This document shows, piece after piece, positions 48,550-52,613 of a stretch of 64,000 nt of DNA. The DNA is from an uncultured delta proteobacterium (GTDB lineage Bacteria; Desulfobacterota; Binatia; UBA9968), in the NCBI GenBank assembly GCA_963771465.1, contig CAVYTU010000009.1, forward strand, positions 128,001 to 192,000, written 5' to 3'. The position numbers and the translations under genes are program-made. Within the stretch, counting starts at the first letter, position 1. Each line of letters starts with the position of its first letter. The notes under the pieces are model-generated. The model worked only from the letters and a program-made list of their open reading frames with translations. It was not told the DNA's origin and ran no database searches.

Positions 48550-48654
48550 CGCGGACATGAATTCGAAGCCCAAGAACAATAATAGCGGTAAGGCAGAAGA
48601 CGGATGCAAGAATAGCAGCGTTAACCCCTGATGCTGCTCGGCTACCTTGATCTT

Positions 48655-49433
48655 ATGATTTCCGAATTAATAAACGATCTTAAGGCGCACACAAACAATT
48701 ATATTGATTGTAATCCGATCTTTACACGTCTTTCTTCCGGCGACATCACACTGTTTCACTACCTCGCCTACCTAAGAGAAAACGTATCACCTCGTAAAGC
48801 ATACGCCTAAATACTTGATGGTCGCCGCTAATCGAGTAGCGGAAAGCGATCAACGACTGTCCGCCTATTTTAGAAAATTTTCTTTTAGAAGAAACCGGAC
48901 AGTTGCTATGCATCAGGGACATTAATGCACTTGGAGAAAACGCGGAGCTTATCATATCTGGCGATCCCAACGCCGGAGCATGGGGAATAGTAACTCAATG
49001 TTATTTTTGGGCCGCCCAAGGCAATCCGGTCGCGCTCCTAGGCGATGCCTTCGCGACCGAAGAGCTTGGCGTCGCAAGGGGCATCGAAGTAGCGAGCCTT
49101 CTTGTGGCGAACTATGGTATTTCGCGTAAAGCAACCAATTTTTTGCGGGTTCATGGGAACGAAGACAATCAGCATCTGGAAGCGGCGGCCGGAGTAATCG
49201 AGTGGTACGCAGCAGATCGTAATCACTACGCTGACATAGATTATGCTACGAGAATGACATACCGATACTACGGCCAGTTATTCACGGATGTTTTGGAACT
49301 GGGCGACAGTTGGAGGCGGAGTTACTACGCAGCTGTCTTTCGCAGTATCGCCCAGGCGATCACGTGGCGCGACGCTACGAGCGTACCAATTCTCGCGGAA
49401 CAGGCAGAAAACCAAACTTCGAGTATTCAGTAA
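48655..49433 (+). pseudogene. Heme-oxygenase-like diiron (iron-containing redox) enzyme, two frameshifts
   Basis: Reconstructed YLAYLRE/TYHLVKHT...EETG...EE...FLRVHGNEDNQH; shifts in an A run (~48780) and a T run (~48885). Confidence 0.65.
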
Positions 49434-49671
49434 GGTTATGTAAACGATACCCTTAGATTTGAGAATGCGCTGGATCTCGCGGAAAGTTTTCTTTCGGTTG
49501 AAGCAGATGTTCGACAACACTGCTCTTCCATCACGCCGTAGGTACGTCGAATCCTAGACCGCGACTTGCATTACGCCGATGCGCTCGGCTCGACGCCCTA
49601 AATATCCCTACCCCGTTGCTTGGCACAATCTGCCATGGACATTCGCTTAACCTTGCGGTAGGTGGTTGATC

Positions 49672-50424
49672 ATGAAAACGGATGAATTTATCGAGGAACT
49701 TTGGGGCTACGCCGCTGAAGTACCGATGGAACAGCATCCATGGTTCGACGGCATCATCAAGCACCGCTGGAGCAAGGAGCAGATCATTCTCGGCGAAGTG
49801 CAGCATTATTTGCGCGTGCGCACCAATCCGATCTTCTTTGGCCATATGGCGATCAACGCGGTGTCGGCGAAGGAATATGCGGTCATGGCAACGGTGTTGG
49901 AAAACTTCATGGAAGAGCTCGGCGGCAAGCGCACGCACGTCGATATCATGCTGCAATTTCTCGAAGAAGGCGGCATCACCCGCAAGGAAGCGGATAACGC
50001 CGAGCCCGCGCCAGGAACTTTAGCCGCCATCGAAATGATCATCGGCTGTTGCCAGCGCCGCTCCGCCCTCGAAGGCGTCGCCATGCTCGCCTTCGTCGAA
50101 AGCCAACTCGGTGGCGAGGGAAAGATTTCGGAAAAAGTTTATCGCGAGCTTACCGGATACTACGGATTCACAGCGCGCGCCGCGGCAACCTACCAACTGC
50201 ACGCTGCCCAAGACGAAGGACACGGCAGCCGGCAAATCGATGCAATACGAATGCTCGCCACCGATACAACAAGCCAAAACAAGATTCGCGCCGCGGTAAA
50301 ACTTGGCCTGACGGCATTCACGTTAGAATGGGACGGTCATGTTCAGGCGATGACGGGGAAGCGGGAATTTTGGGGTGGCGTGGCCGATTTGAAACTACGT
50401 CAACCTAAAGTGAAACTGGCATAA
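49672..50424 (+). CDS. TenA/PqqC/CADD-like heme-oxygenase-fold oxidase
   Basis: QHPWF, ENFMEE...THVD, VESQ, YQLHAAQDEGH metal ligands. Confidence 0.85.
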   Translation: MKTDEFIEELWGYAAEVPMEQHPWFDGIIKHRWSKEQIILGEVQHYLRVRTNPIFFGHMAINAVSAKEYAVMATVLENFMEELGGKRTHVDIMLQFLEEGGITRKEADNAEPAPGTLAAIEMIIGCCQRRSALEGVAMLAFVESQLGGEGKISEKVYRELTGYYGFTARAAATYQLHAAQDEGHGSRQIDAIRMLATDTTSQNKIRAAVKLGLTAFTLEWDGHVQAMTGKREFWGGVADLKLRQPKVKLA

Positions 50425-50483
50425 AGACCGGAAGTCTCTGATCTCGCTGCTAAATCTTGAGCGGTGGAAACTCGAAAACTCTC

Positions 50484-50705
50484 TCAGATCGGCCACTCCT
50501 TCGGCAAATCTTTTCTAAGCGTCTTGTACTCCGGGTCGTTGCTGTGCTTAGCGCGCAAGCGCTTGAGCGCCGCGACGACTTCCTTCTGCTCTTTCTTCAC
50601 TGCGTTGGAGACCATACCCGTGGTCTCTTCGAAGCCGACGCCTCAATTGTTGTGTCAGCCGCGCATGCGTTTGAGAATGTAGAGATCGTCTTCCTTGGTT
50701 GCCAT
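50484..50705 (-). CDS. Candidate 73-aa selenoprotein with two in-frame UGA codons (U17, U21)
   Basis: MATKEDDLYILKRMRG-U-HNN-U-GVGFEETTGMVSNAVKKEQKEVVAALKRLRAKHSNDPEYKTLRKDLPKEWPI; starts 11 bp after the upstream stop; hairpin at 50608-50627. Confidence 0.55.
50608..50627 (-). promoter_or_regulatory. SECIS-like hairpin
   Basis: GAGACCA-CGGGUA-UGGUCUC, perfect 7-bp stem; loop begins 23 nt after the 2nd and 35 nt after the 1st UGA. Confidence 0.5.
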
Positions 50706-50716
50706 GCGAGATTCTT

Positions 50717-51136
50717 TCAACTCGAAATGCCGGAAAAACCTACTTTTTGGTTCGTAATTAATTCGGTCGCGGTCTCCGGCTCACCATCCGTCTTTACAGT
50801 CACGCGAATGCGAACGAAAATCCGCCAAGCGTCACCACGCCATTGGCAGTGAAAAATGACAAAAGCATTTTCAGTCACCGGTCCTGCCGGCTCCGCACAA
50901 TGCACGAGACTCTGGAACTGTTCGCTGCCGCCGCCCGACAATTCGAGCGGCGGCGTGAAACGTACCTCATCTGATTTGAATTGCCCATGGGGTAAGCGTG
51001 CGGAAAGAATATTCACTGTATCGCTGCCAAAATTTTCGACTTCCCAGCGAATATTCCAACCATTCGTCGCCGCATCGCGTGCTACCAAAAGCTGACGCAA
51101 GACGATTTTCGGTTCCGCTGGCGAAAGCGCCGCCAC
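50717..51136 (-). CDS. Hypothetical beta-rich protein
   Basis: 139-aa ORF starting 3 bp after the ABC binding-protein stop. Confidence 0.75.
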   Translation of the reverse strand: MAALSPAEPKIVLRQLLVARDAATNGWNIRWEVENFGSDTVNILSARLPHGQFKSDEVRFTPPLELSGGGSEQFQSLVHCAEPAGPVTENAFVIFHCQWRGDAWRIFVRIRVTVKTDGEPETATELITNQKVGFSGISS

Positions 51137-51139
51137 AGT

Positions 51140-52155
51140 TTACTTCAGCCTGCCTTCTGCGCGCAGTTCCTGCTGTGCGATCTTGAGAATCCGATCGTTG
51201 ACGACTCGATCGAGGGTAAAGTTCTTGTCCACCAGTCCGGCGCGAATATCTTCGTCGAGCATCTGCTGGAGTCCACCGGTTACGATCGACAGATCAGCCG
51301 TGAGACCCGGAGCATACAGATCGTAAGCCGCGTTGACGATATCCGTTTCGCCGCTGAGACCTGACTCGTAGCCCGCTTTGATCGCCTCGCGCTTGTTGAA
51401 TTTGGCCAACTGCATCCCTTGGATGTAAGCTTTGAGCACTCGTTTGCTCATCTCCGGAAATTTTTCCAAAACTTCGTTGCGCGTGACGATAATATTTTGC
51501 GGAATGCCCAGCGACTCGCTTAGATTACTGATCAGGGAATAACCGGCTTTGATGAGCCGAACGCCATCCTCCGGTGAGAACGGCGCCGCGGCGATTATCC
51601 CTTCTCGATGGCCGCCGCGCGCAATACGGTGCCGCCGATCGCTCGCAGCGTGACATCCTTGTCTGGGTTGATATTGTGTTTCTTGAGGAAAGCCTTCATG
51701 GCGAATTCTGAGTAGGTTCCGGCGCCGGTCACGCCGATCATCTTGCCTCTGAGGTCTTCCACCGTGCGCGTCTGCTTGTTGCCGAGCAAAATGTAATTGG
51801 TCGTGCTCGAAGTGCAACCGACTATCGATAAATCCAATCCCCGAGATCGGCTGCGAAAAACCGCCTGCGCGCCGCCGATGGCGGCGAAATCAACTTCTCC
51901 GGAAACCAGAGCGGCGATTGCCGCGGGCCCGCCGCGAATCAGGATCGGCTCGACGCTCAGCCCCTGCTGTTTGAAAAATCCACGCGCCAGCGCGACGCGA
52001 AAAGGAATCTCGCTATTCCAAGCGAGGCTGACGAATACCATGCGAACGTTCTTCTTTTCCTGCGCCAGGGGGAGTGTAGCGCTCAAGAGCACGGCAAGAA
52101 GGCAAATCCCGAATTGCGATAATCTTCGAATACCCATCACGCCAGTCCTCTTCAC
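51140..52155 (-). CDS. NMT1/TauA-type ABC substrate-binding protein, 1-nt frameshift ~51600
   Basis: Signal peptide, GFFKQQGL, ALVSGEVDF, DLRGKMIGV; AIEKG/IIAAAPF junction lacks one G in a G run. Confidence 0.85.
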
Positions 52156-52613
52156 CGTTTCGCGTACACCGTCATCTTGCCGTTCTTATCGAAGGTGAAA
52201 ACCGTATACGGCTCCGGCTTGCCGCCTTCCATGCCCGGCGAGCCCACCGGCATGCCTGGCACGGCGAGGCCGAGCACCGGCGGTTTCTCTTTTAACAATT
52301 TGTCGATCAAGTCCGCCGGCACGTGACCTTCTATGACGTAGCCGTCGATCACAGCGGTATGACAGGAACGCAGTTTCTCAGGGACATTGTGCTTAATTTT
52401 TACATCAACAAGCTTGCTGCTCATCACGTTCTTCTTGTCGACTTTGAATCCATTCGCTTGTAGGTGCCCGACCCACCCAGTGCAGCAGCCTCAGCCGGGG
52501 TCTTGATAGACGGTGATTGATTTGGCGGCGGGTTTAGTTTGAGCTTCCAGCCGTACTGCGACGAATGCGAAGCAGATTAAAAACCAAATGATGGCAAATT
52601 GGCGATGTCGCAT
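52152..52613 (-). CDS. DUF411/CopG-like periplasmic metal-binding protein with Sec (U41-G-C-C)
   Basis: GAGGAG RBS, signal peptide, VYQDPG-TGA-GCCTGWVGHL in frame with SCHTA, EGHVPA, GLAVPGMPVGSPGME. Confidence 0.85.
52461..52479 (-). promoter_or_regulatory. SECIS-like hairpin
   Basis: UGGGUG-GGUCGGG-CACCUA stem-loop after an 11-nt spacer from the UGA at 52491-52493; loop starts with G. Confidence 0.65.

Follow-up and report, generated by a model that had tools for sequence, protein, structure and literature searches.

Two closely spaced in-frame UGA codons in a small gene of uncultured Binatia: a probable two-selenocysteine protein encoded beside a heme-oxygenase-like dimetal oxidase

Introduction

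What does a short reading frame encode when it is interrupted twice by UGA within a few codons? The question is raised by a gene of 73 codons on the minus strand (50484..50705) of a 64,000-nucleotide stretch of DNA from an uncultured delta proteobacterium of the Binatia (GenBank assembly GCA_963771465.1, contig CAVYTU010000009.1, positions 128,001 to 192,000). This whole stretch is called the window here, and all coordinates are those of the window. A first-pass annotation, made from the letters without database searches, had proposed that the frame is a di-selenocysteine microprotein overlooked by gene calling. The table-11 list of open reading frames (ORFs) in the window does give only a 43-aa tail (50484..50615) for this gene. 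The proposal itself is supported by conserved TGA codons, cysteine (Cys) homologues, constraint on the RNA and the presence of the selenocysteine (Sec) machinery. We give a probability of about 0.8 to the overall explanation, in which the gene encodes a selenoprotein, a hairpin within it acts as the recoding signal, and the Sec pair is linked to an adjacent heme-oxygenase-like dimetal oxidase (HDO). That both UGAs are decoded as Sec is, judging from the sequences compared, slightly more probable still.

Results

Reading frame and its conservation

The frame opens with an ATG at 50705-50703, 11 nt from the TGA of the upstream gene (50719-50717). Sixteen sense codons lead to the first UGA (UGA1, codon 17, 50655..50657), which is followed by CAC AAC AAT and the second UGA (UGA2, codon 21, 50643..50645); 52 further sense codons ending in PKEWPI precede the terminal TGA (50484-50486). 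The two internal UGAs are 12 nt apart and lie together within 15 nt, and the product would read M-15 aa-U-HNN-U-52 aa. Each of these positions, as given by the first-pass annotation, was confirmed on the minus strand.

The read-through protein was compared with six-frame translations, ignoring stop codons, of 61 genomes (its own and 60 relatives). In 49 of these genomes it has a match at E <= 2.3e-16, and 48 of these matches are full-length with exactly two internal TGA codons. Two unpublished genomes (G005 and G035) are among those counted; if they are left out, the gene is present in 47 of 59. The remaining match (G021:C559, locus L027/L084), which a contig end cuts at its start, contains an in-frame TAG near codon 51 and reflects either decay of the copy or an error of sequencing. 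When each species was represented by one genome, 216 loci encoding relatives were found, and the 80 kept comprise 77 with TGA at both codons, one cut at a contig end, one with Cys at both codons (L095) and one with Cys followed by Sec (L115). The record titles of the carriers are mostly Candidatus Binatia, "uncultured delta proteobacterium" and Syntrophobacter-type metagenome-assembled genomes (MAGs). Others are labelled Chloroflexota, Limnocylindria, Dormiibacterota, Verrucomicrobiia or Acidobacteria, and some of these labels may be binning errors. In an even sample of 400 genomes of the same phylum, the genome of the window gave the sole strong match; the family thus sits, within the phylum, mainly in this order. 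Two matches at E 0.003-0.009 in that sample fall in giant ORFs and were taken as chance.

The pooled loci numbered 116 (L003-L042 and L046-L125 minus L017, L027, L055 and L056), which collapsed to 91 non-identical genes, or 90 copies without L084, which starts at a contig end. TGA occupies both codons in 88 of the 90; L095 has TGT at both, and L115 has TGC followed by TGA. Codon 17 is accordingly TGA in 88 copies and TGT or TGC in the other two, and codon 21 is TGA in 89 and TGT in one. The first-pass annotation had suggested conservation of TGA or Cys at these codons as a check, and one or the other is present in every locus with readable DNA.

The variation among the 88 double-TGA copies is that of a coding sequence on both sides of the UGAs. 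Third-position variation dominates in codons 5-16 and 35-73; for codons 5-16 the first, second and third positions have mean entropies of 0.86, 0.50 and 1.43 bits. Upstream of the UGAs, conserved residues are encoded by several synonymous codons (Leu11: CTC 30, CTG 19, CTT 14, TTG 6; Arg13: CGC 43, CGG 18). The three codons between the UGAs, 18-20, vary as whole codons with no indel, and Asn20 is kept in 87 of the 88 copies by way of both AAT and AAC. The N-terminal peptide, whose conservation had also been named as a check, is conserved, and the start codon (ATG or GTG) has the same position in 38 of 39 loci, with GGAGG-type ribosome-binding sites before it in several lineages. From the entropy pattern, the synonymous codon usage, the indel-free codons 18-20 and the fixed start, we conclude that protein-level selection acts, as read from these alignments, on a single frame that extends from the first ATG through both UGAs to the last stop.

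Contigs from soil RNA libraries cover 50300-50666, which includes both UGAs, and 50691-50841, which includes the start codon; none of the contigs listed lies over 50667-50690 or 50842-50984. The support they lend to transcription of the locus is weak, because such libraries can hold DNA and the contigs come without strand or level.

Cysteine homologues

A profile search over 1.84 billion representative proteins returned 126 matches. Most of them are 43-residue stumps, as are most of the 558 matches (43 aa long) in another database search, and about 20 have Cys-x3-Cys in a complete protein, 60-73 residues long or called slightly longer. The residues C15, C19, F23, T26, M29, L45, R62, P66 and P70 are invariant in the Cys form and correspond to U17, U21, F25, T28, M31, L47, R64, P68 and P72 of the Sec form, so that UGA1 and UGA2 align with the two invariant cysteines. 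Met31, the start of the listed 43-aa ORF, aligns with the invariant internal Met29 and is therefore an internal residue and not a start; the complete homologues do not begin there. In L095 the frame is uninterrupted and gives a single 73-aa protein with Cys in place of both Sec. The Cys forms are named hypothetical proteins of Sulfolobaceae, Thermoplasmata, Marsarchaeota, Heimdallarchaeota and Hodarchaeales MAGs. These archaeal-MAG proteins (71-73 aa; for example MGA7861269.1, MEM0173867.1 and MCH8905931.1) belong to the same family as the Sec form by length, invariant residues and a C-terminal LP..(W/F)P, and differ from it in having Cys for Sec; all are annotated as hypothetical. No form fused to the HDO was found among the 126 profile matches, and the sole long match, P0231 (1148 aa), is an unrelated repeat protein.

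Two other kinds of database entry touch the UGA stretch. Some Joint Genome Institute (JGI) calls of 71-86 residues have W at both UGA positions, and in two of the seven W-type calls examined (P0005 and P0007) the terminal TGA is also read as W; the sequences of these proteins point to code-4-style gene calling. The proteins P0009, P0035 and P0163 follow the +1 frame over the UGA stretch ("CAVD.AIE.") and then rejoin the normal C-terminal frame. These shifts fall at base runs and are likely to be sequencing errors, while a natural route of losing both Sec codons is also conceivable from their sequences.

The first-pass annotation recognised no family, and the database searches agree. Neither the Sec form nor 12 members of the Cys form have a family match in Pfam or NCBIfam; the read-through protein drew only a chance match to pola (E 0.073, 11 bits) in NCBIfam release 20.0 at E <= 1.

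Selenocysteine machinery

The machinery for Sec insertion, whose presence had been named as a further check, was found in the genome: a tRNA-Sec with anticodon tca, selA (537 bits), selB (359 bits) and selD. The selD gene has its own in-frame TGA; it is itself a selenoprotein gene (AAG-U-AAKLG; L208, G000:C14:200711-201637) and stands in a selA-selB-selD row on C14. A strong SelA match is present in 46 of the 49 carrier genomes. SelA was discarded as a phylogenetic profile across the relatives, as it is near-universal in the order and therefore does not discriminate. Outside the order, SelA was found in all three of the double-Sec genomes examined, which are labelled Chloroflexota or Dormibacterota, and no SelA match was found in the genome of L095, the Cys/Cys locus.

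RNA hairpins

Consensus folding with RNAalifold gave two hairpins. Hairpin B (50608..50627, minus) is the perfect GAGACCA/CGGGUA/UGGUCUC hairpin of 7 bp reported by the first-pass annotation as a candidate selenocysteine insertion sequence (SECIS); we found it at 50627-50608 with its loop beginning 23 nt past UGA2 and 35 nt past UGA1, as reported. Hairpin A (50630..50645, minus) was not seen by that reader. It is conserved and includes UGA2: its 6-bp stem pairs UGA2-GGC with GCUUCG across a 4-nt loop, and the 5' arm starts with UGA2. In the consensus of the copies this arm is UGA2-(G/A)GC, and the loop of hairpin B is CGGGNA.

The stretch from Gly16 to Asn34 is near-invariant at the nucleotide level. 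Synonymous entropy in the 88 copies is 0 at codons 22 (GGC), 24 (GGC), 27 (GAG), 28 (ACC), 29 (ACG) and 32 (GTC) and 0.16 at codon 25 (TTC), whereas equally conserved residues elsewhere have 0.7-2.2 bits (R64 2.23, L67 2.15, P68 1.23). Free variation is seen at the third positions of codons 26, 30 (in the loop of hairpin B) and 33, which coincide exactly with the positions left unpaired; the freezing of synonymous sites is confined to those that pair in hairpins A and B. Across 81 distinct sequences, 99.2% of the cells in hairpin A, 99.8% in hairpin B and 99.5% in the two together are paired, and 28-52% with slid partners. In three stem pairs only one of the two bases has changed (GU/AU or GC/GU).

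The loop of hairpin A differs by lineage (CUCG, GUCG, GCAA, GGAA, GCGA and GUAA, including GNRA types) over an unchanged stem, and residue 24 alternates between Gly and Ser with the GC of the stem retained. This variation around a fixed stem suggests that these bases are kept by selection on the RNA helix rather than on the protein. In L095 hairpin A is lost and hairpin B is retained with one G.U pair; in L115 both are retained.

The same genome offers two genes for comparison. The SECIS of fdhA has a 7-bp stem and a GGUUU loop 11 nt after the UGA, and has GGU in the loop in common with hairpin B; selD has a small hairpin containing the UGA, followed by a GC-rich hairpin. The small gene shares with these SelB/SECIS genes an in-frame UGA, a GC-rich hairpin in the coding sequence with an apical G/U, Cys homologues and the Sec machinery. 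It is unlike them in its two UGAs 12 nt apart, its tandem conserved hairpins of which the first contains UGA2, its spacing of 27 and 15 nt and its 73-aa product. A search of Rfam with 50300-50900 gave no match at E <= 10. We consider that hairpin B is likely to be the SelB-binding SECIS.

Predicted structure

AlphaFold2, run on a 37-sequence alignment with Cys in place of Sec, predicted a four-helix bundle (residues 4-21, 25-36, 40-54 and 58-65) with a predicted local distance difference test score (pLDDT) of 89.7. In this model the two Sec lie four residues apart and on the same face, where helix 1 ends. The top fold match is the de novo designed 7dns (Z 8.8). The best natural matches are small helix-turn-helix (HTH) domains (sigma-70 region 3/4, GerE, the LysR N-terminal domain and MntR) with VIA-align Z 5-6 over 45-61 residues and a root-mean-square deviation (rmsd) of 1.7-4, scores within the range common for helical models and without a sequence-family match. 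Foldseek gave no match at E <= 0.001, and the best ESM Atlas score of the Cys-form protein P0193 was 0.76, under the noise level. As the matches were generic helical or HTH-like ones alone, no family was assigned from the fold.

Neighbouring genes

Directly upstream and co-oriented lies a gene for a 139-aa beta-sandwich protein (up139; 50717..51136, minus), which has no Pfam or NCBIfam match and is found in this place and on the same strand in 88 of the 91 Sec-form loci. Its model has a pLDDT of 92.7. The best fold match is ApaG (1xvs; Z 9.6, rmsd 3.2, 108 residues), a score slightly above many other beta-sandwiches and without a Pfam hit to ApaG/DUF525.

On the other side, convergent with the small gene, lies a gene for a 252-aa CADD-like HDO (49666..50424, plus) with the Pfam domains Haem_oxygenas_2 and TENA/THI-4/PQQC. 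An HDO is convergent downstream in 83 of the 91 Sec-form loci, with a median identity of 81%. Across the 61 relatives, 48 genomes have both the small gene and the HDO, 11 have neither and two, both fragmented assemblies, have one alone; the 11 without both include assemblies of 1-10 contigs. The closest solved structures to the window HDO are CT610 (CADD; 1rcw) and a 4-aminobenzoate synthase (8va9), at E ~2.5e-12. In CT610, Tyr27 is the sacrificial residue and Lys152 the amine donor, according to the accessible text of PMC11965152. In a HMMER alignment these two residues face Phe27 and Val158 of the window HDO, which is therefore not called a 4-aminobenzoate (pABA) synthase. Its TIGR04305 score, 58 bits, lies below the cut-off of 200, and a CADD-type self-sacrificing pABA synthase was rejected as its identity. 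Complex prediction for the Cys form of the small protein with the adjacent HDO gave a score of 0.01, which is evidence neither way.

The Cys-form loci were sampled as 80 metagenome loci fetched by the pattern MGNC[FY][AE]AC, which represent one related clade. An HDO lies directly downstream on the same strand in all 56 of those with at least 1 kb of downstream sequence. It has 298 residues with an N-terminal zf-C2H2_9 domain followed by TENA/PQQC and Haem_oxygenas_2, matches PDB 4lqx at E 5e-115 and matches CT610 weakly. The two kinds of locus thus differ in that the HDO is co-oriented and carries zf-C2H2_9 in the Cys form but is convergent in the Sec form. The up139 profile had no match in the Cys-form loci at E <= 1. 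Among the Cys-form loci (L126-L205), a gene for a small Cys-rich protein of the Ta0938 family follows the HDO in 22 and ThyX lies upstream in 10 (examples of these neighbours are at L176:4282-4614 and L176:2421-3158); the ThyX genes are a faint folate-related hint.

Discussion

The comparisons made here favor a selenoprotein gene, and a route by which it might be expressed can be outlined. Translation would start from the ATG at 50705, probably through coupling with the gene that ends 11 nt before it, and SelB and tRNA-Sec would decode codons 17 and 21 as selenocysteine. SelB would bind hairpin B, a recoding signal inside the coding sequence and directly past the UGAs. Hairpin A may be a collapsible spacer: when folded, it would put hairpin B at an effective 11 nt (9 + 2) from UGA1, which equals the spacing in fdhA. 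When UGA2 is in the A site, hairpin A would be melted and hairpin B would lie 15 nt away. By means of this spacer, one SECIS could serve both codons.

The Sec-x3-Sec pair would be the functional site of the protein, either a redox-active diselenol/diselenide, which would form a low-potential couple, or a soft-metal site. It could serve the CADD-like HDO as a reductant, a metal donor or an activating factor; alternatively, the HDO could modify the Sec or Cys pair of the small protein, which would then be a protein substrate. The ApaG-like up139 may also take part in the bacterial loci. We give even odds to the small protein being a functional partner of the HDO. A specific role as reductant or metal donor is doubtful, and the complete scheme, in which the di-Sec protein is a dedicated HDO partner (reductant, Fe/Mn donor, activating factor or substrate) and both UGAs are served by a single SECIS through the spacer hairpin, is a shade more doubtful than that. 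A small redox- or metal-sensing regulator is also conceivable.

The same locus could be read in other ways. Gene callers list the 43-aa ORF in the window, and it makes up most of the 558 database matches, as would be expected if UGA1 were a true stop and the 16-codon upstream ORF with the hairpins formed a leader that regulates, perhaps by sensing selenium or translation, a separate 43-residue protein starting at Met31. The AUG of Met31 lies at the junction of the loop and 3' arm of hairpin B with GAAGAG ahead of it, where the structure could gate initiation. Such a leader is nevertheless improbable: Met31 is invariant and internal in the continuous Cys forms, in which the N-terminal helix and Cys-x3-Cys correspond by homology to residues 5-21, and the uninterrupted protein of L095 joins the two parts. 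Moreover, both parts are always in one frame, with codons 18-20 evolving as codons and no indel in the 88 copies. Another reading is a translational bypass from Gly16 (GGC) to Gly22 (GGC) that would skip 15 nt, a hop in the style of T4 gene 60. In the window, GGC codons do flank a 15-nt gap with a stop codon at each end and hairpins beyond it. However, codon 22 is AGC instead of GGC in 15 of the 88 copies and codon 16 is GGT in 15 and GGG in three, so that the take-off and landing codons often mismatch. The codons to be skipped are under amino-acid selection, as the two synonymous codons for Asn20 indicate, and align with the Cys-x3-Cys of the homologues. We regard the bypass as still less probable than the leader.

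Read-through of UGA by tRNA-Trp occurs in bacteria, and W stands at both positions in some JGI calls; a near-cognate Trp or Cys tRNA, or a local change of the code, might thus yield a Cys or Trp protein with no Sec. We judge this to be about as improbable as the leader. P0005 and P0007 read the terminal TGA as W too, and the genome uses TGA as an ordinary stop both in the upstream gene and at the end of the small gene itself. Trp or other sense codons at these positions had been named by the first-pass annotation as telling against its proposal; TGG is absent from both codons in the 90 DNA copies. In addition, the Sec machinery is present, a dedicated conserved hairpin lies past the UGAs, and the one Cys/Cys genome has no SelA match. 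The least probable of the alternatives is a pseudogene in decay, or an RNA element without any coding function whose frame is open by chance. Frame changes break two genes near it in the window, and one relative has an in-frame TAG (L027/L084), as decay would predict. Against this stand 88 distinct copies without other stops or indels, the dominance of third-position variation outside the hairpins, the confidently predicted fold and, for an RNA element, the lack of an Rfam family at E <= 10.

Several observations weigh against the explanation that we prefer, a selenoprotein with a hairpin signal and a Sec pair linked to the HDO. Covariation of the hairpins had been proposed earlier as a check, and none of the 13 stem pairs shows a two-sided compensatory change. 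Because the stems are near-invariant, this check is uninformative, and the support for the hairpins therefore comes from the frozen synonymous sites and the one-sided GU/AU changes. Hairpin B lies 27 nt from UGA1 and 15 nt from UGA2, compared with 11 nt in fdhA of the same genome. The ribosome-binding site before the first ATG is weak in the window copy, as the first-pass annotation had noted. Three carriers have no strong SelA match (G010, 60% complete; G028, 92%; G030, 88%), and SelA was not found in the genome with L115, the Cys/Sec locus, a genome of uncertain completeness. Two consecutive UGAs should lower the yield; recoding in E. coli is 30-40% per UGA according to the accessible part of PMC4513850. 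The functional link to the HDO comes from gene neighbourhood alone. Joint loss of adjacent genes is partly expected for trivial reasons, and related genomes are not independent; in the bacterial loci the small gene and the HDO are convergent and therefore not co-transcribed.

We rate the gene as a new selenoprotein family. The unusual features are the double UGA within 15 nt, the tandem hairpins and the link to a dimetal oxidase in both bacterial and archaeal-type loci. The accessible text of a 2026 review (PMC13188914) counts 119 prokaryotic selenoprotein families with the double-Sec types UxxU, UxxxxU and CU. The string UxxxU does not occur in that text, and supplementary family lists such as those of BSepDB or deep-Sep may name the family otherwise; nor was UxxxU found in the selenoprotein sense in the literature searched. 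In the same literature, no paper connecting Binatota or Binatia with selenoproteins or selenocysteine was found, nor one connecting selenoproteins with terms for HDOs. The double-Sec families listed (UxxU metal-binding NF041115, FmdB-family UxxU TIGR02605, TsoB UxxxxU NF045694 and MbdU NF045648) also have two close Sec and are thought to be metal-binding or redox proteins, in the accessible text of PMC13188914. The small protein is unlike them in having U-x3-U on a helix of a four-helix bundle, and none of these four models matched it in the NCBIfam search at E <= 1.

Standard annotation overlooks this gene, and the databases hold hundreds of its 43-residue stumps. If the selenoprotein reading is correct, the prokaryotic selenoproteome would gain a very small two-Sec family that is widespread in uncultured soil lineages, and the gene would offer a compact natural test case for the recoding of closely spaced UGAs. 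If, further, its product is a dedicated partner of the HDO, it would be the first selenoprotein component of an HDO system. A possible unknown protein partner or activating factor has been raised for the CADD/CT610 type of enzyme in the accessible text of PMC11965152, and the near-obligate pairing of the HDO with both Sec and Cys forms of the small protein would offer a concrete candidate for the partner that enzymes with poor activity in vitro may be missing.

The wider surroundings of the locus show a few further features. Further upstream, the 91 Sec-form loci contain an NMT1-type binding-protein gene in 27-30 cases and a DUF411 gene in 14. In the window, the NMT1/SsuA-like gene (51140-52155, minus) is split into two overlapping ORFs (51595-52155 and 51140-51817) by a frame change near "...AAAIEKG | IIAAAPFSPEDG...", where relatives have a single 336-aa protein; a pseudogene or an indel in the assembly would account for this. 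A degenerate second paralogue with Haem_oxygenas_2 (48631-49433, plus) has a frame change with stops between 48810 and 48903, lies in a stretch of lower GC (0.45) and is matched in only one of the 91 loci, its own. The DUF411 gene (52152-52427, minus) shares 4 nt with the start of the binding-protein gene. We take DUF411 to be a CopG-like, metal-binding family, and if so, this gene would hint at a metal theme in the wider operon.

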